IMG/VR virus record: IMGVR_UViG_2690316104_000008
Coordinates: 1 to 32,586 of that record
Length of the DNA stretch: 32,586 bases
Source of the DNA: a virus
Lineage: Duplodnaviria; Heunggongvirae; Uroviricota; Caudoviricetes
Direction: 5' to 3' (one strand)
The translations under genes and the position numbers were made by a program. The notes under the pieces are model-generated. The model was not told the DNA's origin and did not search any database. It saw nothing but the letters and a program-made list of their open reading frames with translations. Within the stretch, counting starts at the first letter, position 1. Each line of letters starts with the position of its first letter. Positions 1,958-32,586 of the stretch are shown piece after piece.

Positions 1958-4405
1958 TTAACCGTCATGCATCATGCTGGCACGGGCGCGCGCACGTTTA
2001 TCCCGCTCGTATTTTTCGAGCGCATCCTGTAACTGGCGGTCAAGCTGTGTTCCCGGCGCAGTACCGCCCGTCAGGTTGATGTGATATTCGTTTTTACTCT
2101 GGTCCACATAAGAGCGACCAGCCGGTGCCGTGACCGGCTGATAAGCCTGATAGCCTGCATAAGAGCTGGTCGCCGGAATATAACCACCGGTGCCATACGT
2201 GGCGGCATGAGTCCTTGCGGCGGTCTGATCAAGTGTGTCTGACTCTTTGTTGATAACACCGAGTTTTTCCAGTACCCAGTCAATACCGCTGCGCAGTTTG
2301 TTGAACGCATTAAGCGGCAGCATCAACGCGTCAGCCAGTGCCTTCCCGAACATGACACCCGTGTCACGGCAACGGTTCAGGGTGTCCTGGGTGGCTTTGA
2401 CGGGGGCAATCAGGTTTTTAAACCACTGCCACGCGGCCTGTAACTTTTCACCCAGCCAGTCAAACAGCGGCTTAAGTGGCGTGAACAGTTCCCCCACCGG
2501 CGCAAATGCCGCTTTCAGCCCTTCCACCACACCGCCAAAGAATGCGCTGACAGGCTCCCAGTATTTACGGATAAGCAACGCCCCGGCGACAATTGCAGCC
2601 ACCACGGCCACAACCGGCCAGCTAATCGCCCCGATGGCCGTCATAACAGCACTGCCAACCGTCGTGAAGATTGCCCCCATTGCGCCTGCTGCCGCGATGA
2701 TGGCATTGATGCCAGTGATAACCGGCCAGGCTACGAGGCCAATGGCACCGATGACAGCAGTCAGCGCCAGTGCACCACCGACAATGAGGCCGATGGTTGA
2801 CGCCAGTGATTTGTTTTTCTGGATCCAGCCGTCGAGTTTTAACACATACTTTGTGGCCGTCTGCGTGAGCTTACGCAGTGTGCCTTCCTGCTGGTCAAAC
2901 AGGTCAGTCCCCACCGCCTCATAAGCGGACTGAAACTCCTTAAAGTCGCCTCCGAGGTTATCCTGCATGATTTTAACCAGCTCTTCCGTTTTACCGTCCG
3001 AGGCTTTCAGCGTGGCGGTCAGCTTATCCAGTTTTCCGCTTGCTGCCGCTGCCAGTAAAACGTTCGCTGATTTCAGGGCTTCCTCACCAAAAATGGTTTT
3101 AAGGTATTCCCCTTTCTGAGACGTTCCCAGCTTGTGTTTATCAAAGCTGGCCTGAATCTCTTTCAGAATGGTGAACAACGGACGCATATTTCCCTTTTTG
3201 TCCGAGGTTTTAACGCCAAGCTCTTTGAGTGCATCCCATGCTTTTCCAGTCGGTGCCTGTAATCGGGTGACAACGGCGCTACTACCCGTACCCGCCATTG
3301 ACCCCCTGATGTTATTGTCATGCAGCACACCTGTCATGGCCGCTGCCTGCTCAAGACTTACACCTGCCGTCCTCGCAACAGGCCCGAGGTAAGTCAGTGC
3401 ATCACTGAGTCCCTGAAAATCAGCCGCCGACTTATTCATCGTTGCCGACAACACGTCGCCCACATGGCTGACATCATCATTTGACAGTTGAAAGGATGCC
3501 TTAGTCCCCAGCAACAGTTGAGCGTTTTCTTCCATCGACCGCTGATTCGCCAGTGCCATATTCAGCGTGACCGGCGTTGCCGCCTGAATAGCCGCAGCAT
3601 CTCCACCCGCTTTCGCAATGATAATCTGCGCACCGGCCGCATCATCCGCTGAGGCGGCGGTGTTGTCGCCGAGCTGGCGCGCCTGCTTGCGGAGTGCAGC
3701 CATTTCGGCAGAGTCTTTTGCCACACCGAGCACAGCCTGCAATTCCGAGTTTTTCTGCGCAAACTCATAACCGGGCATCAGCAGCTTAACTCCGGCCATC
3801 GTTCCCGCCGCCGCAATCCCCACACCGGCAGCGCCTACTGAGGCCATATTTCCGGCCAGTTCCTTTCCGGCCTGATAACGCTGTTTTACTGCGTTAAGTT
3901 TTGCCTGTTGCGCACTGACACGCGCCAGCGCATCACGCTGACGGTTAAGCTGGGCGGTGGTTTCACTGATACGGTTTTTCAGTCCCTGCTCATCATGTGC
4001 AAGATTGCGGGTATTAATTCCCACAGCGGCCAGTTCCCGCTGCTGGCGTTTAACTGAATCCGTCAGGCGGTTATATTTCGCCTGTAAGTCCTCCGCCGCT
4101 CGCTTTGCTGATTCCAGCACTTTCGCCTGAGCACGGGTCGGACGTTCGGTGTTTTTAAACTGTGTGGCAAGGGCTTCGGCTTCCTGCCGTGCCTTTTCAA
4201 GTGCATGACCAGTCACGGCAAGCTGTGCACTGGTCTTGCGGAATCCCTCAATACGGGATGCCTGACCGTTCAGCTCGCGCAGTGATTTTTGTGTTTCCCG
4301 GATATCCCCCGACAGCGACTTACTCGCTGTGCGGATGGATTTAAACGGGCGGGATGCCTGGTCAACAGCCCTGAGCAATACCTGTAATTTTACATTGTTA
4401 CTCAT
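1958..4405 (-). CDS. T: Tail tape measure protein T
   Basis: 815 aa from MSNNVKLQ; coiled-coil N-terminal half, Gly/Ala-rich hydrophobic centre; start overlaps E' stop; ORF-track start 4432 is an upstream extension. Confidence 0.9.
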   Translation of the reverse strand: MSNNVKLQVLLRAVDQASRPFKSIRTASKSLSGDIRETQKSLRELNGQASRIEGFRKTSAQLAVTGHALEKARQEAEALATQFKNTERPTRAQAKVLESAKRAAEDLQAKYNRLTDSVKRQQRELAAVGINTRNLAHDEQGLKNRISETTAQLNRQRDALARVSAQQAKLNAVKQRYQAGKELAGNMASVGAAGVGIAAAGTMAGVKLLMPGYEFAQKNSELQAVLGVAKDSAEMAALRKQARQLGDNTAASADDAAGAQIIIAKAGGDAAAIQAATPVTLNMALANQRSMEENAQLLLGTKASFQLSNDDVSHVGDVLSATMNKSAADFQGLSDALTYLGPVARTAGVSLEQAAAMTGVLHDNNIRGSMAGTGSSAVVTRLQAPTGKAWDALKELGVKTSDKKGNMRPLFTILKEIQASFDKHKLGTSQKGEYLKTIFGEEALKSANVLLAAAASGKLDKLTATLKASDGKTEELVKIMQDNLGGDFKEFQSAYEAVGTDLFDQQEGTLRKLTQTATKYVLKLDGWIQKNKSLASTIGLIVGGALALTAVIGAIGLVAWPVITGINAIIAAAGAMGAIFTTVGSAVMTAIGAISWPVVAVVAAIVAGALLIRKYWEPVSAFFGGVVEGLKAAFAPVGELFTPLKPLFDWLGEKLQAAWQWFKNLIAPVKATQDTLNRCRDTGVMFGKALADALMLPLNAFNKLRSGIDWVLEKLGVINKESDTLDQTAARTHAATYGTGGYIPATSSYAGYQAYQPVTAPAGRSYVDQSKNEYHINLTGGTAPGTQLDRQLQDALEKYERDKRARARASMMHDG

Positions 4406-21782: not shown

Positions 21783-21924
21783 ACACCCCGTCATCACGCC
21801 CTCACACGCTCATCACCGCACAAAAAATCCCGCAGACACACCAACGCCCCAGCAGGCCAAGTAAACGCCTTCACGACGCGCTCAGACGCTGAAAAAATAA
21901 AATCAGCACCACCGCCAGCGCGCA

Positions 21925-21943
21925 GTGCTTTCCCCGCCTCGCC
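21925..21943. other. cos cohesive-end site (19 nt)
   Basis: gtgctttccccgcctcgcc is the reverse complement of the P2 cohesive end GGCGAGGCGGGGAAAGCAC as I recall it; adjacent to Q as expected. Confidence 0.75.
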
Positions 21944-22171
21944 CGCCCGCTTCATGGGGCGGTTTTAATGCAGTTGCATCAGGAAATCAGAGCTCTACCA
22001 ACACTGGCACGCCACCACATGCTTTGAAATAAAAGCGAATGCAAACTCATGCACCAGTTAGATGCATTAGCACAAAGCTGAAAATCATAAAATAAGCGGC
22101 ATAATCCCCCTCATGCTACCAAGAAACTCTCAAGATGTTGTGCTAAACATCGATGATCTGTACCTTGTTTT

Positions 22172-23638
22172 ATGGTAAACATATCTATAAGTAATCACAC
22201 AGATGGAACTAAAATAACTATGGCAAACGATATCATCGAAGCTTTTCCTGCAAAACGTTTCTTTGTAGAAATGTTAACCAGGGATATCGAACTCCAAGAT
22301 GCTATTCTTGACTTATTAGACAACTGTCTTGATGGCGCTCTTCGTTCCATTTCATCATCGAATGAAGAAATAAACGAAGAAAATAAATACCACGGTTTTT
22401 ACTCAAAAATAAATTTTAATGAAGATGGTTTTACAATTGAAGATAATTGTGGCGGAATTTCGGGAAGCTTAGCAACAAGCTATGCTTTCCGAATGGGAAG
22501 ACCAAATGAAAGAGACATAGATAATATCCCAACCATTGGTGTTTATGGGATAGGTATGAAGCGAGCTATTTTTAAGTTGGGCACTTCATCGCAAGTATTA
22601 AGTAAAACAAAAGACGAGGAATTTAAAGTTACAATTTCTCCAGAATGGTTATCCAATGATAAAAACTGGAAACTAGATCTCGAACGTGGTAATGTCGATT
22701 TAAAAACAACGGGCGTAAAAATTATAGTTAACGATCTCAGAGACGATGTAAAAAACCATTTCAAAGTTGATCGTGATTTTCAACAAAAATTAATCAATTC
22801 TGTTTCAAACCATTATAGCCTAATTCTTAATAAAGGTTTCAAGGTCTATATTAATGATATAGAAGTCAAGCCAAATCTGACATCATTAATTATCGATACC
22901 GAAGCTCTTGTGTCAGCGAAAAAAGGTGGTATCACGCCTTATTTTTACAGAGGTGAAACTAATGGAGTTTCAATAAAGATCGCAGTTGGATTCTATAGAG
23001 ATTTTGTGACAGAAGATGAGGAAAATTCATTCCTTACTGGACGTAACACTTCCGAGAAAGCCGGATGGACTATTATCTGCAATGATCGTGTTGTTGTTCA
23101 TGCGGACAAGACACGTCTTACCGGATGGGGTGAAGCAGGAGTTCCACAATATCATACACAATTTGTTGGAATTGCAGGCGTAGCTATTTTTACATCTAAT
23201 GAAGCTGAAAAATTACCTATTACTACTACCAAGAGAGGCATTGATGGTAATTCTGATATCTATTTGGCTACTAAAGATTTCATGCGTGAAGGCTTGAAAA
23301 TATTTACAGATTTTACTAACAGATGGAAAAGTAACTCTCCAGAACGCCAGCAAATGTTTAGTTCCACATCTAAAACAATTCCTCTTACAAACGACAAACT
23401 AGATAGCATAGTACCTGAAGATAAATGGTCTCGGGTGCATAGATCCATTGGTGGGAATAGTTTCAAACCAACATTGCCAATACCTAAAGAAACAGACCCT
23501 TTAAAGCAAATAAAATTTAGTAGAAGATTGAGTGAGATAAAAACTGTTGCCACTTTCATTTTCGATGATGATTCTGTTCCTCCGACAGAAATTGGTAATT
23601 ATTGCTTTGAAGATTTTTTAGAGAGGGCAAAAAAATGA
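22172..23638 (+). CDS. MORC-like GHKL-superfamily ATPase (Bergerat fold) with about 300-aa C-terminal region of unknown function; alternative start at 22220
   Basis: N box DLLDNCLDGAL, G1 box EDNCGGISG, G2 box IGVYGIGMKRAIFKLG (MORC-type G-YG-G-K); AT-rich. Confidence 0.6.
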   Translation: MVNISISNHTDGTKITMANDIIEAFPAKRFFVEMLTRDIELQDAILDLLDNCLDGALRSISSSNEEINEENKYHGFYSKINFNEDGFTIEDNCGGISGSLATSYAFRMGRPNERDIDNIPTIGVYGIGMKRAIFKLGTSSQVLSKTKDEEFKVTISPEWLSNDKNWKLDLERGNVDLKTTGVKIIVNDLRDDVKNHFKVDRDFQQKLINSVSNHYSLILNKGFKVYINDIEVKPNLTSLIIDTEALVSAKKGGITPYFYRGETNGVSIKIAVGFYRDFVTEDEENSFLTGRNTSEKAGWTIICNDRVVVHADKTRLTGWGEAGVPQYHTQFVGIAGVAIFTSNEAEKLPITTTKRGIDGNSDIYLATKDFMREGLKIFTDFTNRWKSNSPERQQMFSSTSKTIPLTNDKLDSIVPEDKWSRVHRSIGGNSFKPTLPIPKETDPLKQIKFSRRLSEIKTVATFIFDDDSVPPTEIGNYCFEDFLERAKK

Positions 23639-24627
23639 GTACTGGGGGAAGTATTCCTTATCATCTTCGACAACACAAAGCTGTCGAAAGAAATCTATTC
23701 ATTGAGTTGCTCAGAAAACTCAACAACTATGTAAACATATCCGATTATGTTTATATCGGGTTTGGTGGCCCTTTTCTAGAAGACTTCAAACAACTGCATA
23801 ATGCTTTAAAAATCAATAACATGATCTCTCTAGAGGTAGATGCTAACGTTCATAAACGACAAAAATTTAACAAACCTATATCATGTATTGATTTAGGAGA
23901 AGAACCTTTAAGTAGCAGTGAATTTATTACTCAAAGCGACTTCGCTGCACCTTCTCTAATTTGGCTTGACTATGCCATACCAAGCCAAATATATGAGCAA
24001 ATGAATGACATTGCTCAATTGGTAAGTAAGTTAAAGCCAAAAGATATATTTAAAATAACTTTAAATGCAACTCCTGAAACTTTAGGAAGAGATTTTCAAG
24101 AAAGAGACCCTAGGCGTTTTCGATTAAAAAAAATACAATCTTTACTTACTCAAGATTATTGCCCAGTGAATCTAACTGTTGATGATGTCACTTTTAAAAG
24201 GTACCCACACCTTTTAATAAAAGCAGCTCAACGTGCCATAAGTATTGGATTAACAGGTAGACTAGATATAATGATCCATCCTTTATGTAATTTTATTTAC
24301 AAAGATGGTCAGCAAATGCTTACCTTTACTGCCATTGTTCTCGAAAACAGTGATATGCAATTAGATAGCTTCCTTCAAAATTCTCGAATTAATTTTTGGC
24401 CCTTTTATTCTGGAGACTGGGGCACCGTCAAAAACATTAGTGTTCCCACGATGTCTTTACGTGAGAGAATCTTTATTGAGGAACGACTTCCTACAAAAGA
24501 CCATGAAGAAATTACCAACGACCTCGGCTTTTACATTGGAGATGATGAAGCCGAGGCTAATAGTAACCTTAAAAACTTTATTGAGTATTACAAAGTAATT
24601 CCGTGGTATTCGAAAGTTCTTCTTTAG
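23635..24627 (+). CDS. Hypothetical protein, 330 aa, translationally coupled partner of the GHKL ATPase
   Basis: ATGA overlap with upstream gene; AT-rich; no motif I can recognise. Confidence 0.5.
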   Translation: MSTGGSIPYHLRQHKAVERNLFIELLRKLNNYVNISDYVYIGFGGPFLEDFKQLHNALKINNMISLEVDANVHKRQKFNKPISCIDLGEEPLSSSEFITQSDFAAPSLIWLDYAIPSQIYEQMNDIAQLVSKLKPKDIFKITLNATPETLGRDFQERDPRRFRLKKIQSLLTQDYCPVNLTVDDVTFKRYPHLLIKAAQRAISIGLTGRLDIMIHPLCNFIYKDGQQMLTFTAIVLENSDMQLDSFLQNSRINFWPFYSGDWGTVKNISVPTMSLRERIFIEERLPTKDHEEITNDLGFYIGDDEAEANSNLKNFIEYYKVIPWYSKVLL

Positions 24628-25729
24628 AAAACTGACATAATTTATATAACGGTAATAGCATAGCTTCAGCTACTAATGGGCTAACGCTATTACCGATTTG
24701 CCTGAAACTATGCCACTTAGTAGGGTGAAACCTAAACCAATCAGGAAAACCTTGTAATCGAGCAGCCTCACGTGGAGTAATAACTCTAGCCTGCGTTGGA
24801 TGGATCGGCCTAACTGCTTGATAACTGCCCTTATCGCTGCCAGTTCCAGCCCTTAGCGTCGGACAGAAACCATTTGGATTTAACCTCTGAGATCGTGAAA
24901 TTTTATCAGTTTCGCCAAAAGAGAGTTTTTTATATCTATTAATAACCTCATCTGTATGTATTGTTCCCAAGAAACCGGAGACCAACCCTTTTTTTAATTT
25001 TTCTAAAGATTCCGGATCACCAACATTATTCGGAACATTACTCCAAAGTCTATCAAAAAAATATCCTTGCCTATCCATCTTAACTTCACGCCAGCCTTGT
25101 TCCTCTTGCTGCCATTCTTTTCTTATAACACGAGGAATACCGTATAAAGCATCTTTAACTAAGGTTTGCTCAATATCTTGCACAGGAAAGAAATCAGATT
25201 CTTTTAAACAATTAGCTAATTCCTTTTTGAATCCGATAAAAAAAATCCTAGTTCTAGTTGTAGGAGCTCCATAATTAGACGCATTCACTTTTATTGGGCT
25301 CAATATTACATATCGGTCTTTTACTAATGAGAATGCTTTTTCTCTAACTGCATCATATTTTTCATTCATTATCCCAGGAACATTCTCTGCCAAGAAACAA
25401 ACAGGTGATAACTCGCTCACCAACCTAAAAAAATGAATATACAATTCATTTCTGACGTCATTAGCCATCCCTTTACCAATTGTACTAAATCCCTGACAAG
25501 GTGGTCCACCGATGACACAATCAATATTACTAACATTACAAGCTGTTAGAATATCATGAGCAGAAAGTTTGCTAACATCTTTATGTAAATGTGTTGAATT
25601 TGGGAAATTAAGAGCATGGGAAAATATTGCATGCTTATCCAACTCAACGGCACCAACCAAGTTAAAGCCTGCCCGTGATGCTCCCAAGCTTAAACCACCT
25701 ACCCCTGAGTATAAATCAACCACATTCAT
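24578..25729 (-). CDS. DNA (cytosine-5)-methyltransferase
   Basis: Motif I DLYSGVGG, motif IV GGPPCQGFS, motif VI ENV, C-terminal GNSV. Confidence 0.9.
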   Translation of the reverse strand: MNVVDLYSGVGGLSLGASRAGFNLVGAVELDKHAIFSHALNFPNSTHLHKDVSKLSAHDILTACNVSNIDCVIGGPPCQGFSTIGKGMANDVRNELYIHFFRLVSELSPVCFLAENVPGIMNEKYDAVREKAFSLVKDRYVILSPIKVNASNYGAPTTRTRIFFIGFKKELANCLKESDFFPVQDIEQTLVKDALYGIPRVIRKEWQQEEQGWREVKMDRQGYFFDRLWSNVPNNVGDPESLEKLKKGLVSGFLGTIHTDEVINRYKKLSFGETDKISRSQRLNPNGFCPTLRAGTGSDKGSYQAVRPIHPTQARVITPREAARLQGFPDWFRFHPTKWHSFRQIGNSVSPLVAEAMLLPLYKLCQFSKEELSNTTELLCNTQ

Positions 25730-25779
25730 GTTCAGTTAACCATATATGTATATTTAGACAACAATATTTAATTCTACCA

Positions 25780-28080
25780 TTACTTGAGCTCTTTGCTGAA
25801 GTACTCATTACTAAAACCCTGCCACTCATCGACATTACTTGCCACATACTTATATTTTTTATCATCGAATATCACCATCGCACCACGCGCCAGCGCCTCA
25901 AGCTCCCATCGCTGTGGCCTGATACCGTTCTGAGCAAGGTCAACGCGGATACGGGTAATTTGCATTCGTTCCGACCGGGTCAGTCTGGCCGATGGCGCTA
26001 TTTCATGCGGTTTTAACGGGCTTCCGTTTCTTTGCTGACGGTTTGGTCTTCTCAGACCGTGTTTTAATGCACCTCTGAGCGCCCTCACGACCTCCTGGTC
26101 ATTCCATTTGATAACACCGCCATCTACCAGATTAAGCACTGCTACGGCGTGTTCAGAAGGCGTGGGAGCCGGTGACGAAGTATCACCACCGGTGAGCTTT
26201 CCACAGTTATTGACAGGACTCCGAGGCGCGGCGATGCCGCTTTTTAAAGTCAAAGGCTCCACGACCGGAACTTTCGGAACAATGCGCCAGTCCGTCGTTC
26301 TGGTGATATGAATATGACGCGCGCCGAGATGCGGCGCGTAAATGCCGACCACTCTCTCGACTTCTTCCTCGTACTCGTTAACTTCATCCGACGGGCTACG
26401 GGCAACCCTGACAGTCTGACAATCGCGCGGAACATTTGCCCCACCCTGCGCGCTGATATACAACGCAAAATCACCACTGTCTGCGGCAGCGCGAGCAGCC
26501 TCGACGCGTTCGTCAAACTCATCAGCAATACTGACGCCGCGAGGCAATTTGCGTAGTTCACGGTAAGCCCCCATTGTCGGCAGGCCAACCGTTTTAAATT
26601 GTGGAATGCGCCACGTTGACGCCCATGCGGTAACAGCCGCGGCAGTGTCTTTCAGCGGCCTGCCGGTATCGTTATCGAGCTGACCATCCAGTGCATAGCC
26701 GTCGATGTTTTTTGAAATGTATTTCGCGATATATCCCGCAGCACCGCCCCGGTTAAGGTGTTTTGCCTGAAAACGGTTTCGCGCAGCTCCTCTTTCGTCA
26801 CCATCCTCTTTGAGCGCATAGCGACGCATGATTTCGATAATCTGATTACGCTGGCGTGGATTACAAAAAAGCATCATATGCCAGTGCGGCGTTCCGTCGT
26901 GGTGTGGCTCGACGACACGCAAACCGTAGACCTGTAAATCATTATCCTTGAATGCCGTGCGCATCAGGCTCCAGATGCGGCAGAGATAACGCTGCGCATC
27001 CTTTGGATTAAATGCCTCATCGTTCCAGCCGTGATTTAGCTGGACGGTTTTACTTTCGCCTTTTCCGACCTGACGTGTCGGGTGATACTTTGACGGCGCG
27101 GTCAGCGTGATAAACATCCCCACATCACCCTCTGCGGCGGCGTAACGCTCAATACCGGCAATGGTGTTCATCAGCTCCATCCGGCGAATTTCAGGATTAG
27201 AAATACTTCCCATCACCTTACTGATAAGGTCGATGCGCTCGCCGGTTTCCCTGTTTTCAAGGTCACACGATTTAAGAAATTCCAGATTTGCCTGGCGGCG
27301 CGCACGCACATCACGAATGGCATGTTTACTGGCATAAGGAGAACGGTCTTTATTGACCTCCCCGACAGCAATCAGTAACGCTTCATGCCAGCGCATACGT
27401 TGACCTTTAAGCTGATGAGTCCACCACTCATCGTTAAACAGGCGGGCAATGGCAGAATATGCCTGCCTCGTGGTCATCTGTCCTTTACGGTATTTTTTCC
27501 AGTAAAGCGGGGAAATATTGAAAGCACGTGCAGCGCCAGCAACATGACCATACAGGTGAGCCTGAGCCTCATCCGTAAACAGTGATTCTTTTTCGCCATG
27601 CGCATCCACCCAGGCATCGCTGAGTTCCTCATACATCATGAAAAGCTGCGATGAGATACGGGCGGCAAACTTTTTCAGCTCCTTGTCATTCATCCCCGGC
27701 AGACGCGCATAATGGTCACGCTCTGCCAGAAACAGCAACGACGCGTCGGTGTTCATTTCATGGCGCTGATTCACACGTTCAATGCGCGGCCATAAACGAC
27801 GCTGAAAAGTGGATGTGAGGAAATAAAACCCGTGTACCGGGCTTTTATTGCGCCGGATGTAGTCATAGCGTGAAGTAAACAGCGAGCGCAAAAAGTAAGG
27901 CAGGCGGTTAATCGTGGATAAAACACCTTGCACCTGACGCATCTCGTCACGTGTAAGGGGTCTTTCGCGCCCGACAGCCTCGCGTGGCGCGTTCCATGCA
28001 TAAGCACCGGTAAACGCCTTACCGGTGCCTGCGGCAAATGCTGATGGAGGGACAAAACGCCCGGAGGCTTTAACGGCCAT
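25780..28080 (-). CDS. A: Replication initiation protein A (rolling-circle nickase)
   Basis: From MAVKASGRFVPPSAF, matching remembered P2 gpA N-terminus; HUH-type region EPHHDGTPHWHMMLF; ORF-track start 28122 is an extension. Confidence 0.9.
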   Translation of the reverse strand: MAVKASGRFVPPSAFAAGTGKAFTGAYAWNAPREAVGRERPLTRDEMRQVQGVLSTINRLPYFLRSLFTSRYDYIRRNKSPVHGFYFLTSTFQRRLWPRIERVNQRHEMNTDASLLFLAERDHYARLPGMNDKELKKFAARISSQLFMMYEELSDAWVDAHGEKESLFTDEAQAHLYGHVAGAARAFNISPLYWKKYRKGQMTTRQAYSAIARLFNDEWWTHQLKGQRMRWHEALLIAVGEVNKDRSPYASKHAIRDVRARRQANLEFLKSCDLENRETGERIDLISKVMGSISNPEIRRMELMNTIAGIERYAAAEGDVGMFITLTAPSKYHPTRQVGKGESKTVQLNHGWNDEAFNPKDAQRYLCRIWSLMRTAFKDNDLQVYGLRVVEPHHDGTPHWHMMLFCNPRQRNQIIEIMRRYALKEDGDERGAARNRFQAKHLNRGGAAGYIAKYISKNIDGYALDGQLDNDTGRPLKDTAAAVTAWASTWRIPQFKTVGLPTMGAYRELRKLPRGVSIADEFDERVEAARAAADSGDFALYISAQGGANVPRDCQTVRVARSPSDEVNEYEEEVERVVGIYAPHLGARHIHITRTTDWRIVPKVPVVEPLTLKSGIAAPRSPVNNCGKLTGGDTSSPAPTPSEHAVAVLNLVDGGVIKWNDQEVVRALRGALKHGLRRPNRQQRNGSPLKPHEIAPSARLTRSERMQITRIRVDLAQNGIRPQRWELEALARGAMVIFDDKKYKYVASNVDEWQGFSNEYFSKELK

Positions 28081-28345
28081 ATGAGCCAAAAGCCTCTGAA
28101 CAACGCTTGCTGAGTTGCTCAACCTGCGCGTTTAAATCAGCAAAAGACTTTGCGCTTCCGGTCAGAATATCGTGATGCATCATGCCGGAAACGAGCTGGC
28201 TTAATTTCGGGTAATAACCAACCACCGACAGCCATTCCTGACCGGCGTTTTTACCGCTTTCCGCTCTCTTTTTCTCGTGGAGAATAAACTGAAAGCTGTC
28301 ACTGGTAACGACATAACGTTCGCCAATTTCAATACGAATACTCAT
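28070..28345 (-). CDS. Hypothetical early protein (P2 orf83 position)
   Basis: 91-aa ORF between the zinc-finger ORF and A; synteny only. Confidence 0.55.
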   Translation of the reverse strand: MSIRIEIGERYVVTSDSFQFILHEKKRAESGKNAGQEWLSVVGYYPKLSQLVSGMMHHDILTGSAKSFADLNAQVEQLSKRCSEAFGSYGR

Positions 28346-28568: not shown

Positions 28569-28871
28569 CTAGTTCCTTTTGTCGTTCAGTTTCTTAAATT
28601 CATCAGCGCAATAGCTGACGATTTCTGTCGTTAATTTTGTCAGTTCATCCACGGAGGAAATTTGCTTGTGGAATACAGCGCGTTTAACAAGTAAATTGAC
28701 CACATCAGACAGGAGGTTTAATTCATTCTGATAAATCGCGATAACAGATTCAGTTATGTCGCGTTTTTCTTTATCAAGACAAAGTTGAATAAGAGATAAA
28801 TCACCATTTTCCATAACGGCGATTTTTAAGGCGTTATTCAGTAATACAACTGAATGAGAACAGGACATCAA
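28569..28871 (-). CDS. Hypothetical early protein (P2 orf81 position)
   Basis: 100-aa ORF, coupled to neighbours; synteny only. Confidence 0.5.
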
Positions 28872-29155: not shown

Positions 29156-29656
29156 TTAATGCAGATATTGCTCTGGTTTTACCGACGTCAGAATTGTCGG
29201 TGCATACTCAAACAGGCTGAATAATTCACGTAATGCACGGAATAAGGCATCACGCCAGTAACATGATTCTTCATTAATTCGCCAGTATGGCTGGTTGAAT
29301 TCTTTTTCAGTCAATCCGGCATGCATAAATAAAGTACGGCGCTGACTGACAGTTAAAAAGCTAATATATGCATACTCACTTGCACCGACCTGACGGCGTT
29401 TTGAGAATGCCCCACGCAGTTCATCAATTGCACAAACCAGCCGTTCACGTTCGACGTCGTTCATTTCTTCAAAACGCATCGTTGCGTGACGCTGTTTTAA
29501 CTGCGCATGGAAGCAAACCGTTAGCCGTTCGCGTTCCATCATCTGATTATAATAATCGCATGTCTCCTGCCAGCGAGGGACGGCCAGATGCTTACCAATT
29601 ATCCGGCGCATAGCTGCTGGCTGTTTTTCAACGAGATTGAGCGTCATCACTGTCAT
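29156..29656 (-). CDS. B: Replication protein B (helicase-loading)
   Basis: 166 aa starting MTVMTLNLVEKQPAAMRR, matching remembered P2 gpB. Confidence 0.85.
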   Translation of the reverse strand: MTVMTLNLVEKQPAAMRRIIGKHLAVPRWQETCDYYNQMMERERLTVCFHAQLKQRHATMRFEEMNDVERERLVCAIDELRGAFSKRRQVGASEYAYISFLTVSQRRTLFMHAGLTEKEFNQPYWRINEESCYWRDALFRALRELFSLFEYAPTILTSVKPEQYLH

Positions 29657-29901
29657 TTCCAGACCCTCCGGCTTTTCAGAAAGGTCAGAGCCTTTTTTAA
29701 CGGACTCTGTTTTTTGGTGCGGATAATGATTCCCTTGCGTCCCTTCCCGTGGGTGATGGTGAAGTCAATCGCCCTGGGGCTTTCGTTACGCAATAACTGA
29801 GCAATACAACGAGGTTCCGGCATAACTCCTCCTGAAACAGAGCCGGTTTTTAGCCATGTCCGGCACATGGTCTTGTGGTAAGATCGAATCGCCAAAAACA
29901 A
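29653..29901 (-). CDS. Hypothetical small protein upstream of B (possible P2 orf78 equivalent)
   Basis: 82-aa ORF with ATGA overlap onto B; basic, low complexity; weak support. Confidence 0.35.
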   Translation of the reverse strand: MFLAIRSYHKTMCRTWLKTGSVSGGVMPEPRCIAQLLRNESPRAIDFTITHGKGRKGIIIRTKKQSPLKKALTFLKSRRVWK

Positions 29902-29922
29902 CCAACCACAAAAGGTGTAAAA

Positions 29923-30129
29923 ATGGACAAAAAAACTGTTACTGTATTTCCAGACAAAATCACTATCGATGGTATTGTCAGTGAGGGTAAGATGAGACTA
30001 CTCGCACACCTTCATACCGACTTAAACCTAAAAAGCGATAATGTTCTTGCAATTAGTATTCAACTCGAGCAATTAAAAAATCTTCATGCTACTATCGGCG
30101 AATACTTAGAGCTAAATAAAGAAAAATAA
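29923..30129 (+). CDS. Hypothetical small protein (68 aa), opposite strand to the early operon
   Basis: ATG preceded by aaggtg; stop 2 nt from the stop of the convergent 198-aa gene; AT-rich. Confidence 0.3.
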   Translation: MDKKTVTVFPDKITIDGIVSEGKMRLLAHLHTDLNLKSDNVLAISIQLEQLKNLHATIGEYLELNKEK

Positions 30130-30131
30130 TT

Positions 30132-30728
30132 TCAATCTACTTTGCGCCATGAGTATTTTTGCATTCCTGGCGCATATTTTTCTACAGCATTAATAATACT
30201 CAGCGCATCAAATTCGCTATAACCTTTTTCGTCATCCGATAACTTTGATACTCCGTAGTACACATGACCGATAAACCTGTCATTTTCATAACAAGCTCTA
30301 CAGTATAGAGTCACATAGTTGCGTAATGGGGTTAGCTCGCAACCAATAATAGAAAGATCACCAAAACGCAAAATCTCAAATTTACTTGATTTGCTTCTTT
30401 TTGTTTTAGTTGGGGCTTGTTGATTCTGGCTGATTAACGCAAATGACTCTTGTAAATTATTTATAATCTCATTACGTTCATCTCTTTTGTTATTTTCCAG
30501 CCTGACACATCCACATTTAATTAAATGCGTCAAAGTCTCAATTTCTGCAGCTCTTACAGGTAAAGCCAGAAAATTAACTTCTTCTTCTAATTTTTTCGCT
30601 TCAATTTCTATGTCATCAACTATGGCTGATACGTTAGATTGCCCTTCAATCGACAAAAGTCTCGTGCGCAGCTCGATGATCAACGATTGAATTTTTTTAG
30701 CTGCCGCGTTTCCTACTATAGTGTTCAT
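30132..30728 (-). CDS. Hypothetical protein, 198 aa, AT-rich cargo gene inserted between cox and B
   Basis: Long ORF with atypically low GC; no P2 counterpart at this position as far as I recall. Confidence 0.55.
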   Translation of the reverse strand: MNTIVGNAAAKKIQSLIIELRTRLLSIEGQSNVSAIVDDIEIEAKKLEEEVNFLALPVRAAEIETLTHLIKCGCVRLENNKRDERNEIINNLQESFALISQNQQAPTKTKRSKSSKFEILRFGDLSIIGCELTPLRNYVTLYCRACYENDRFIGHVYYGVSKLSDDEKGYSEFDALSIINAVEKYAPGMQKYSWRKVD

Positions 30729-30737
30729 AACATGCCC

Positions 30738-31094
30738 TCACACCATACGCCCTAATTTCGACTTGCTATAACTAATGCGGTTCTTCCAGTCATGCCACTC
30801 TGTCGGAGCTTCATCGACTAGTTGAGCTGCATACTTGTCCCACTCACGTCGATTAATCCATAACTCAGCGTGACCGCCCGGCTTTAACGGGTCTGTCATA
30901 TAGAATGCTGGCAGCTTTCCAGCTCGTGCCATTTCAGCCACCGCACGAGGAGTCTTACCGATGTAAAGAGCAAAACCCTCTTTCGACAGTAAATCTGACG
31001 GATCCGCAGCCAAATTAATGGAATCACGCTTGTTTTTTTTAAGAGCAGAAACTTCTTGTCTTTTCTCGTCACAAATTTCAGATCCGACATTCAT
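30738..31094 (-). CDS. cox: Cox-like excisionase / early-operon repressor
   Basis: First gene divergent from C; ALYIGKTPRAVAEMARAGKLPAFYMTDP resembles the P2 Cox DNA-binding region. Confidence 0.6.
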   Translation of the reverse strand: MNVGSEICDEKRQEVSALKKNKRDSINLAADPSDLLSKEGFALYIGKTPRAVAEMARAGKLPAFYMTDPLKPGGHAELWINRREWDKYAAQLVDEAPTEWHDWKNRISYSKSKLGRMV

Positions 31095-31120: not shown

Positions 31121-31150
31121 GATCTAGAGCGATTTAGAGTCGTTAGATGC
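31121..31150. promoter_or_regulatory. Candidate operator: three TTAGA-type direct repeats at about 10-bp spacing in the C/cox switch region
   Basis: gatcTAGAGc gatTTAGAGt cgTTAGATgc between the divergent cox and C starts. Confidence 0.4.
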
Positions 31151-31197
31151 TGATAAATCATATCAACTATGCAAAAGAATACGAGGTTAGAGAATTT

Positions 31198-31497
31198 ATG
31201 TCAACTGACACTAGCGAACGTTTGAAGCTTATCCGTGAGTCTGAACGTCTGAAAATGAAGGAGGTAGCTGAACTAGCTGGCATCAACTACACCACATATG
31301 CAGGTTATGAATCAGGTAAAGCTATGATGTCCCTAGAAAATGCTAAGAAGTTTTTTAAAGTAGAAAGGTTCAGAAAATACCGTGACTGGTTCATGTTTGA
31401 TGAAACTGATCCAGCAGCTGGACAAATAGCCCCGGCTCTCGCACACATTGGGCAAGACTCAACAATCTTGCACCACTCAGACCAAAAGACTGGCTGA
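31198..31497 (+). CDS. C: Immunity repressor C, 99 aa
   Basis: C-terminus GQIAPALAHIGQDSTILHHSDQKTG matches remembered P2 C; GAGGT ribosome-binding site; followed by int. Confidence 0.85.
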   Translation: MSTDTSERLKLIRESERLKMKEVAELAGINYTTYAGYESGKAMMSLENAKKFFKVERFRKYRDWFMFDETDPAAGQIAPALAHIGQDSTILHHSDQKTG

Positions 31498-31590: not shown

Positions 31591-32586
31591 ATGTCTATTA
31601 AAAAGCTCGATGATGGTCGTTATGAAGTGGACGTCAGACCGCAGGGTGCAGATGGAAAACGTATCAGGCGGAAATTTAAAACTAAAGGTGAAGCTCAGGC
31701 ATTCGAACGTCATGTGCTGGTTAACTACCACAACAAAGAGTGGTTAGAGAAGCCAGCCGACCGCCGAACTCTTACAGAGTTGTTAGGCAGATGGTGGATC
31801 TATCACGGAAAATCACATGAGCGTGGAGATATTGAACGAGGGCGTTTAACGACAATAATCGCCAAATTTGCAGAAATGGGAGTGTCCAGAGCAGACCAGC
31901 TAACAAAGAAAACGATAACTGATTATCGCGTTGTAATGATGAACGATGGTCTAAAACCAGCCAGCGTAAATCGGCATCTGGCAATAATGAGCGGGATGTT
32001 CACCAAGTTAATTGACGCCGGTGAATACCACTCTCACAACCCGTTCCGTGAGGTGAAGCGGTTACGTGAAGCTGTTACGGAAATGGCTTTTTTGTCCAGT
32101 GAAGAGATTACGCGGCTGTTATCCATGCTTGATGGCGATGAATTAAATGCAACGCTGGTCTGCCTTTCTACTGGTGGACGCTGGAGTGAAGTGTCTAATT
32201 TAAAAGCTGAACACATCATTAACCAGATGGTTACGTTTATGAAAACTAAAAACGGAAAGCGCAGGACAATTCCCGTTTCGCAGGATCTGATTAAACGGAT
32301 CAAGACCAAAAATTCAGGCAGGCTTTTTAATGCCAGTTACTACAAAGTGCGTAACGCTCTCCGGGAAGTAAAACCCGATTTACCTGACGGACAAGCAGTA
32401 CATGTTTTGAGGCATACATTTGCCACACATTTTATAATGAATGGAGGTAACATAATCACATTGCAGCGCATCCTGGGTCATTCTAACATTCAGCAAACTA
32501 TGACCTACGCACACTTTGCACCGGATTTCTTACAAGATGCTGTGACTCTTAACCCGGTGTCAGGAATGTCCATAATGCGTCCATAA
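31591..32586 (+). CDS. int: Tyrosine integrase
   Basis: 331 aa; R...HxLRHTFATH...Y catalytic signature (VHVLRHTFATHF, TMTYAHFAP); ends at the window edge. Confidence 0.9.
   Translation: MSIKKLDDGRYEVDVRPQGADGKRIRRKFKTKGEAQAFERHVLVNYHNKEWLEKPADRRTLTELLGRWWIYHGKSHERGDIERGRLTTIIAKFAEMGVSRADQLTKKTITDYRVVMMNDGLKPASVNRHLAIMSGMFTKLIDAGEYHSHNPFREVKRLREAVTEMAFLSSEEITRLLSMLDGDELNATLVCLSTGGRWSEVSNLKAEHIINQMVTFMKTKNGKRRTIPVSQDLIKRIKTKNSGRLFNASYYKVRNALREVKPDLPDGQAVHVLRHTFATHFIMNGGNIITLQRILGHSNIQQTMTYAHFAPDFLQDAVTLNPVSGMSIMRP

Follow-up and report, generated by a model that had tools for sequence, protein, structure and literature searches.

What are two AT-rich, tail-to-tail genes doing inside the early operon of a P2-like prophage? 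The DNA that raises this question, hereafter the window, comprises positions 1 to 32,586 (32,586 nt) of the IMG/VR virus record IMGVR_UViG_2690316104_000008, and its right end covers the immunity and early genes of a P2-like (Peduovirus) prophage. Between cox and a homologue of P2 orf78 lie a gene for a protein of 198 amino acids (aa), here called X, and, on the opposite strand, a gene for one of 68 aa, here called Y, with stop codons 2 nt apart (30130–30131). An initial annotation, made from the sequence alone, had noted X as a foreign gene faced by a possible small open reading frame (ORF) and considered the two a moron, perhaps a toxin–antitoxin (TA)-like pair or a superinfection-exclusion or abortive-infection gene expressed from the lysogen. 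Our tentative answer is that X would be an effector of early lytic growth and Y its cognate antagonist, expressed in the lysogen. The descriptive part of this answer, a mobile two-gene accessory cassette with cognate partners and phase-opposed wiring, is well supported.

A foreign gene pair inherited as a module

The GC content of X and Y was 0.365 and 0.343, respectively, compared with 0.50 for cox, 0.47 for orf78 together with B and 0.512 for the whole window. It dropped to 0.33–0.37 over positions 29900–30700 and was approximately 0.50 on either side. In P2 (NC_001895), orf78 begins 10 nt after cox, and the entire X–Y block is therefore an insertion relative to P2. The low GC content of X and its want of a P2 counterpart, both pointed out in the initial annotation, were thus borne out, and the pair has the absence from close relatives and the deviant base composition of a moron.

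Near-identical copies (at least 99%) were found in 9–10 of 5,426 complete E. coli genomes, 1,669 of which carry orf78, and all of these copies were in a P2-like prophage adjoining pflA. In 50,697 phage records, tblastn found neither X nor a relative; P2 and these records lack X, which is hence not a core component of the P2 early operon. Word-indexed protein searches recovered only the own 90% cluster of X and of Y, and a search with the family profile added two further matches, both already-known relatives. Alignment-based searches for related loci gave nothing in species-representative genomes, and nothing beyond near-identical copies in IMG/VR and metagenomes. An exhaustive phmmer search of 1.84 billion representatives returned only seven cluster representatives for X, among them five distant relatives of 206–284 aa with 25–41% identity. 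The neighbourhoods of all five were read on the encoding contigs and, together with the window, make up the six lineages referred to below. All five relatives come immediately behind cox in P2-like prophages, and next in order are a convergent gene of 67–68 aa, orf78 and B. The host prophages differ in integration site and in their Cox proteins (88–137 aa). The small ORF that had been called possible is thus a real gene, with a homologue beside every relative of X. X and Y were inherited together while diverging to about 25–40% identity and therefore form a cognate pair. An X conserved across P2-like phages facing an unconserved small ORF, the outcome that the initial annotation had named as contrary to its view, was found on neither count: X is rare, and Y is its conserved partner.

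In E. coli TUM11352 (L004, L041), the prophage end with its pflA flank was present both on an 88-kb 'plasmid' record and on the chromosome; the chromosomal copy has many frameshifts, and the duplicate is probably an assembly or polishing artefact. In an IMG/VR prophage (L028/L016), a 1-nt indel in the cassette leaves no X ORF of at least 40 aa, and a metagenome contig (L020) has a deletion of approximately 144 nt within X; Y is intact in both.

The plus-strand ORF can be read from a GTG (29875–30129, 84 aa) or from an ATG (29923–30129, 68 aa). The initial annotation combined the start position of the former with the length of the latter, and only the length stands. On comparative grounds the ATG is the true start of Y, since the Prokaryotic Genome Annotation Pipeline (PGAP) annotates a 207-nt gene in the near-identical E. 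coli prophages, every homologue begins at that methionine and the GTG falls in the predicted −10 region described below. The Y homologues have 67–68 aa and 28–66% identity to Y of the window, and align over 68 columns without internal gaps. They share the motifs V-x-V-[FY]-P-x-x-I-T and H-L-H-T-D-L-x-L-K; judged by eye on the sequence, the N-terminal half is strand-rich and the C-terminal part helical. Synonymous sites were saturated between lineages (proportion of synonymous differences 0.6–0.9 versus 0.17–0.49 for non-synonymous ones). The ratio of non-synonymous to synonymous substitution rates (dN/dS) was 0.14–0.55 for Y where dS could be estimated, and in the closest pair, the window and L010, it was 0.14 for Y and 0.37 for X. 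The low non-synonymous against saturated synonymous change indicates that X and Y are protein-coding, under purifying selection and inherited as a module. Across lineages, Y was consistently better conserved than X.

If X and Y were two functionally unrelated hitchhikers that do not interact and possibly benefit neither phage nor host, this would fit the rarity of the pair in E. coli, and the copies with an indel or deletion in X or an insertion sequence (IS) beside Y. We consider this very improbable, given that the pair was kept through synonymous saturation in six lineages that differ in their types of cox and integrase, and that the two-gene architecture recurs with unrelated sequences, as described further below.

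The conserved element and predicted opposed transcription of X and Y

Upstream of Y lies a non-coding element of approximately 45 nt (Table 1), which was near-invariant in 14 distinct sequence contexts and conserved far beyond either coding sequence, though the cargo behind it differs. It is not present in P2. The −10 hexamer within it occurred as TAAGAT, TAGGAT, TAGCAT, TACTAT and TAGGTT, and T-12, A-11 and T-7 were kept, together with the upstream TG, in 12 of the 14 contexts. The two exceptions (L044 and L045), from another prophage lineage, have a T at the −11 position. Such a pattern of conservation is that expected of an extended −10 sigma-70 promoter, which we predict for Y. A palindrome in the element would then cover the −35/spacer region, the place for a regulator to act. 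That the element is coding on the operon strand and lengthens orf78 at its N terminus (M-[CR]-R-[TA]-W-[LIV]-K) was rejected, the variation being on first codon positions and the third positions invariant.

Positions 29842–29870 can form two overlapping and mutually exclusive hairpins, GCCGG(N)...(N)CCGGC and CCATGT-CCGGC-ACATGG, the first of which shows a compensatory change, GCCGAG/CTCGGC, in lineage L013. These hairpins may be a palindrome bound by protein, a signal at the DNA level, or an RNA element that the transcript from the early promoter (Pe) carries shortly before orf78. A credible match in Rfam was not obtained. In E. coli 2013C-4830 and 2012C-4227, an IS3-family element lies between the predicted −10/transcription start and the ATG of Y (in 2013C-4830 at L003 1682–2910, equivalent to approximately 29897–29902 of the window) and parts Y from the conserved promoter; in L003, cox is also frameshifted.

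Downstream of Y, a hairpin of −12 to −16 kcal/mol with a TTTT ending 46–48 nt past the Y stop was found in four of the six lineages, irrespective of whether coding or intergenic sequence supplies its 5' arm. In the window it sits within the 3' end of the X coding sequence, and the predicted Y transcript overlaps approximately 45 nt of the X 3' end before this predicted terminator. Y thus has two predicted signals of an independent moron, the conserved TGnTAnnAT and the hairpin with its T-run. On the early-operon strand the hairpin is not followed by a T-run, so transcripts from Pe should pass it, as they must to reach B and A further on. Y is therefore best described as a predicted self-contained transcription unit, antisense within the early operon and crossed head-on by transcription from Pe.

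For X, neither a promoter nor a terminator signal of its own was found, and the gene is embedded in the Pe operon. It starts 9 nt past the cox stop codon (9–65 nt across the six lineages), and its Shine-Dalgarno sequence overlaps that stop codon, by which X is coupled to cox. A promoter consensus scan placed Pe at 31204–31176 (TTGACA-17-TATTCT) and gave no promoter match on the operon strand between Pe and the start of X. With X so close behind cox and lacking a promoter match, its transcription is expected from the C-repressed early promoter, and X probably belongs to the C-repressed early operon. Of the foreign tail-to-tail moron first proposed, the composition and the absence from relatives hold for both genes, but own transcription signals are predicted for Y only. 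Likewise, expression from the lysogen is probable for Y but unlikely for X.

The same arrangement could act through RNA or transcription itself, with a conserved leftward promoter and its transcript braking the early operon by collision and as antisense to the cox–X–orf78 mRNA; this would stabilise lysogeny or tune the expression of B and A, the Y peptide being secondary. Conservation of the promoter element while the cargo changes, its position facing Pe such that all Pe transcripts must cross it, and the overlap of Y and X at their 3' ends would agree with this, as would the use of convergent promoters as a lysis–lysogeny switch in P2 and 186 (from their annotations). Nevertheless, we regard it as improbable. 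The protein sequence of Y is under purifying selection and its length is maintained, the element is missing from P2 and from about 96% of the E. coli genomes that have orf78, Rfam offers no match, and the constant pairing of a specific X with each Y would be left unexplained.

Exchangeable cassettes between cox and orf78

The element was scanned in IMG/VR, and the E. coli and phage matches were read for cargo. It was present in 78 of 5,426 E. coli genomes, which is about 4–5% of the orf78 carriers, and preceded cassettes of about 0.4–1.1 kb. Type A, with a Y of 67–68 aa and an X of 198–284 aa, comprises the window and L005–L013. Type B (L022, L031, L033, L035 and L042, the last from E. albertii) has a Y of 64 aa and an X of 154 aa; type B2 (L032, L039, L043; Y 63 aa, X 139 aa) is 67% identical to it in Y and 32% in X. 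The commonest cassette in E. coli was type C, with a Y of 58 aa and an X of 62 aa assigned to PHROGs of unknown function, which is also present in Yersinia phages vB_YpM_115/117, L023 and others. Type D (L027, L037; Y 62 aa, X 199 aa) occurs in 186-type phages, with X after cII. Type F (L029) has a Y of 60 aa and an X of about 75–101 aa, behind two copies of the element 536 nt apart. The Y leader is conserved in types A, B, B2 and D, and not in type C.

By hhalign between the cassette families, the Y families were not detectably related, and among the X families only A and D were, through a shared N-terminal helical module of approximately 50 residues (probability 87%, E = 4e-6). None of the cassette proteins checked received a Pfam, PHROG-function or PADLOC assignment; weak PADLOC matches were confined to type D (JAB to X, E = 0.0014; cyclase to Y, E = 0.0042). 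Since the element is shared ahead of unrelated convergent pairs, the site holds exchangeable cassettes. The same architecture with unrelated pairs behind one element also implies that pair specificity resides in X and Y. A role for X as an analogue of 186 CII was discarded, as the 186-type loci have cII besides X.

The two element copies of L029 are at 2865–2888 and 3401–3424 of a GC-rich IMG/VR phage contig, with ORFs on both strands after each, which suggests that cassettes can stack in tandem, here in a phage context unlike E. coli P2. In L044 and L045 (E. coli STEC316 and G1/2), the element core (the hairpin and TTGTGGTA) occurs in a different P2-related prophage lineage, beside genes of the families DUF4761 and DUF4754; a convergent ORF pair again follows it in L044, where the plus-strand ORF has 155 aa, and the arrangement in L045 differs. 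The 186-type L024 and L030 have a differing cassette, with an 87-aa plus-strand ORF, DUF1508/YegP-like by eye, approximately 280–545 nt past the element.

The two known hotspots of P2 are a rich source of new defence systems, and P2-like prophages are found in about 30% of complete E. coli genomes. The P2 hotspot literature consulted describes the gpA–gpQ site, the tail (Z/fun) site and a tail-to-CI site; no description of the cox–orf78 site or of its design was found there, nor was any literature found on the RefSeq accessions of the pair. In a 2026 survey with about 8,000 P2-like prophages, 8% of the recognisable P2 defence systems were within the int–gpA (integrase–primase) interval (PMC13586616). 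What appears to be new here is a cassette site within the early operon of P2, at which at least five or six convergent pairs, unrelated to one another, occur with a conserved promoter element. This adds a further variable site, inside an essential early operon, and its design is unusual and repeatable: the early gene and the small convergent gene vary, and the one promoter is conserved. It is possible, though doubtful, that cox–orf78 is an undescribed site of P2- and 186-like phages for a family of interchangeable two-gene modules unrelated in sequence, each encoding a lytic-phase protein in the early operon and its small lysogenic-phase partner, all partners being governed by one conserved, probably regulated promoter.

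Two other AT-rich stretches were present in the window. The low-GC stretch at 28569–28871 of the minus strand (GC approximately 0.37), also in the early operon, encodes a 100-aa DUF5405 protein. PGAP places in this family the gene that related prophages have where P2 has orf81; the stretch is thus not an insertion but a diverged allele of a regular early gene. A second, larger block at 21800–25730 (GC approximately 0.34–0.39) lies in the classic gpA–gpQ hotspot. Its ORFs look like restriction-modification-like or methylase-linked defence cargo.

Table 1. Position of the X–Y cassette, its predicted signals and other features in the window
Feature	Position	Strand	Size, sequence and evidence
Gene X	30132–30728	−	198 aa; ORF list; five distant relatives, all at the same site
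Gene Y, convergent with X	29923–30129	+	68 aa; ORF list; PGAP coding sequence WP_024240189 in near-identical prophages
Conserved non-coding element upstream of Y	29840–29884	+	~45 nt; near-invariant in 14 contexts
GC hairpin in element	29842–29864	+	GCCGG...CCGGC
Palindrome in element, across −35/spacer region	29854–29870	+	CCATGT-CCGGC-ACATGG
Extended −10	29876–29884	+	TGgTAAGAT (pattern TGnTAnnAT)
Predicted Y 5' untranslated region	29885–29922	+	CA-rich leader (CGAATCGCCAAAAACAACCAACCACAAAAGG); Shine-Dalgarno AAGGTG at 29912–29917
Terminator-like hairpin of Y transcript	30144–30185	+	GCGCCATGAGT...ATTCCTGGCGC then ATATTTTTCT; free energy −15 kcal/mol
cox–X junction	30729–30737	−	9 nt (GGGCATGTT); Shine-Dalgarno GAGGG of X overlaps cox stop codon
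cox, upstream cassette flank	30738–31094	−	118 aa; Pfam Phage_Cox, E = 1.6e-28
orf78 homologue, downstream cassette flank	29653–29823	−	56 aa; phrog_273, E = 2e-39; P2 map
Gene B, after orf78 homologue	29156–29656	−	phrog_235, E = 1.5e-104
orf80–83 homologues	between B and A	−	
Gene A	25780–28122	−	
Repressor C	31147–31497	+	later ATG probably the true start, giving 99 aa as in relatives
Integrase (truncated at window end)	31591–32586	+	
Hotspot ORF	22172–23638	+	488 aa; HATPase_c_3
Hotspot ORF	23635–24627	+	330 aa; PF20553 Methyltransf_35
Hotspot ORF	24578–25729	−	383 aa; C5 cytosine DNA methylase; PADLOC MTase_II, E = 8e-95

Possible roles of X and Y and comparison with known systems

X is an acidic, soluble protein with an isoelectric point (pI) of 6.2 and a grand average of hydropathy (GRAVY) of −0.32; its relatives have a pI of 4.9–5.7. 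AlphaFold2 modelled X with a predicted local distance difference test score (pLDDT) of 51 without an alignment, and with a pLDDT of 60 and a predicted template modelling score (pTM) of 0.28 when given the six-sequence alignment. The model has four N-terminal helices (residues ~8–102), then a basic, disordered linker of low confidence, and a C-terminal part with a beta-hairpin (139–161) and a helix (172–185). The C-terminal motif is R-x2-Y-x2-(N/G)-x3-G-x-[IV]-x-Y-G. Residues invariant in the six-lineage alignment were I17, L20, R21, L54, G73, L77, F122, P134, R144, Y147, G154, Y158, G159, E172 and A186, which apart from R21, R144 and E172 are hydrophobic, aromatic, glycine or proline. No recognisable catalytic or enzyme-like motif was among them, which weakly favours a binding protein over an enzyme; X may accordingly act by binding. 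The Y proteins of all cassette types are soluble, have 58–68 aa and contain no membrane segment or enzymatic motif.

Homology and structure searches assigned neither protein to a family. Pfam, PHROGs, NCBIfam and PADLOC returned only sub-threshold noise for X and Y (such as Ezh2_MCSS and Med3), a profile search against PDB sequences gave nothing for X and only noise with E > 0.3 for Y, and PADLOC-DB 2.0 had no match for X, Y or three distant X relatives. Structure searches with the X models returned generic helical matches only, and no fold was assigned. For neither gene was there homology to TA, superinfection-exclusion, abortive-infection or defence families, and the membership in these that was first suggested is not upheld.

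A conventional TA addiction module that stabilises the prophage, whether of type II or of type I/III with an antisense RNA, would be a small, foreign, tightly paired two-gene prophage module such as this one, and the convergent overlap resembles some type I systems. Even so, it is the reading to which we give the lowest probability. Type II loci are co-directional, bicistronic and autoregulated operons, whereas X and Y are convergent, and no toxin or antitoxin family was matched in Pfam, NCBIfam, PHROGs, PADLOC or PDB. The toxin of a type I system is small and hydrophobic, whereas X is a hydrophilic, acidic protein of 198 aa. Moreover, X has no match to a promoter active in the lysogen, so that loss of the prophage would not release pre-made toxin.

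We hypothesize instead that the two genes serve opposite phases of the phage. Repressor C would hold Pe shut and X silent, and X would appear as soon as the early operon is switched on. Y would be made in the lysogen from its own predicted promoter, its transcript ending at the terminator-like hairpin within the X 3' end. During lytic growth, read-through from Pe toward B and A would cross Y, which would then be opposed by polymerase collision and antisense pairing. X would bind a component of the host or of a competitor rather than catalyse a reaction, and Y, presumably by contact with X, would be the specific antagonist that keeps leaky X harmless in the lysogen. TA-like thus applies as logic, that of a cognate antagonistic pair, and not as family membership. 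From the annotation of phage 186, X occupies a slot analogous to that of fil (a cell-division inhibitor) and dhr (a host-replication inhibitor), after cII.

Several observations weigh against this hypothesis. The Y promoter was inferred by comparison from its pattern of conservation, and the consensus scan did not flag it, since the −35 is weak. The X proteins are acidic (pI 4.9–6.2), unlike most TA toxins, and Y is more conserved than X, the opposite of the usual toxin/antitoxin pattern. The structure models of X are weak, as the scores above show. Disruption of X was limited to two independent observations (L028/L016 and L020), from which neither toxicity nor dispensability nor selection can be read.

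The acidity of X and the stronger conservation of Y somewhat favour reversed roles, in which Y would be a lysogen exclusion or defence factor, or a modulator, against incoming phages or P4-type satellites, and X an early self-immunity or counter-defence protein; a phage with the matching cassette would escape Y through X made from Pe, as with sieB and esc of P22. Y has its own predicted promoter and terminator, like lysogenic-conversion genes, and X, acidic and non-catalytic-looking, resembles many inhibitor proteins encoded by phages. That a single site has several cassette alleles unrelated to one another suggests diversification of the lock-and-key kind, and the share of defence systems in the int–gpA interval noted above points the same way. 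We nevertheless hold such a reversal to be unlikely, the small, soluble Y proteins being devoid of membrane segments and enzymatic motifs, and neither any Y nor type-A X having a PADLOC match.

If the effector/antagonist hypothesis is correct, the pairs would be a new class in phages with a new regulated promoter; otherwise, this would be a minor moron site. If cox–orf78 is the site of interchangeable modules considered above, the class would be a new kind of phase-switched effector/antagonist system, for example of anti-defence or host-takeover proteins with safety for the lysogen, and type-A X would be a new orphan effector at the fold level.

Like P2 old, tin, Z/fun and the hotspots, the X–Y block is foreign, AT-rich and non-essential cargo, cassette-exchanged between near-identical prophages (PMC9122126, PMC9519451). 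Unlike these, it sits at cox–orf78 within the essential early operon and has the design of a fixed convergent pair behind a single conserved promoter, and neither gene has homology to old, tin, fun or the PADLOC models. The slot, immediately behind the switch genes and ahead of the replication genes, is shared with fil and dhr of the related phage 186, which its annotation gives as non-essential genes under the early lytic promoter; 186 lacks a convergent partner gene at that slot, and a search for the conserved element gave nothing in it. When every X and Y type was compared by BLASTP with Fil, Dhr, CII and Orf78, nothing significant resulted, the sole match being X to Fil over 22 residues (E = 0.14).

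Convergent type I TA loci of prophages include RalR/RalA in rac, TxpA/RatA and BsrG/SR4. They resemble X–Y in their tail-to-tail units with overlapping 3' ends and in their prophage location, and one partner there is constitutively transcribed. They differ in that the Y transcript encodes a conserved protein under purifying selection, and in that X is soluble and its operon transcription is predicted to be repressor-controlled. In P22, sieB is a prophage abortive-infection gene and esc an early-lytic antidote from the same phage; esc is an in-frame internal product of sieB, and SieB is membrane-associated. Unlike these nested genes, X and Y are convergent, and the likeness is one of logic only: one product made in the lysogen, opposed by a cognate partner whose gene is in the early lytic operon.

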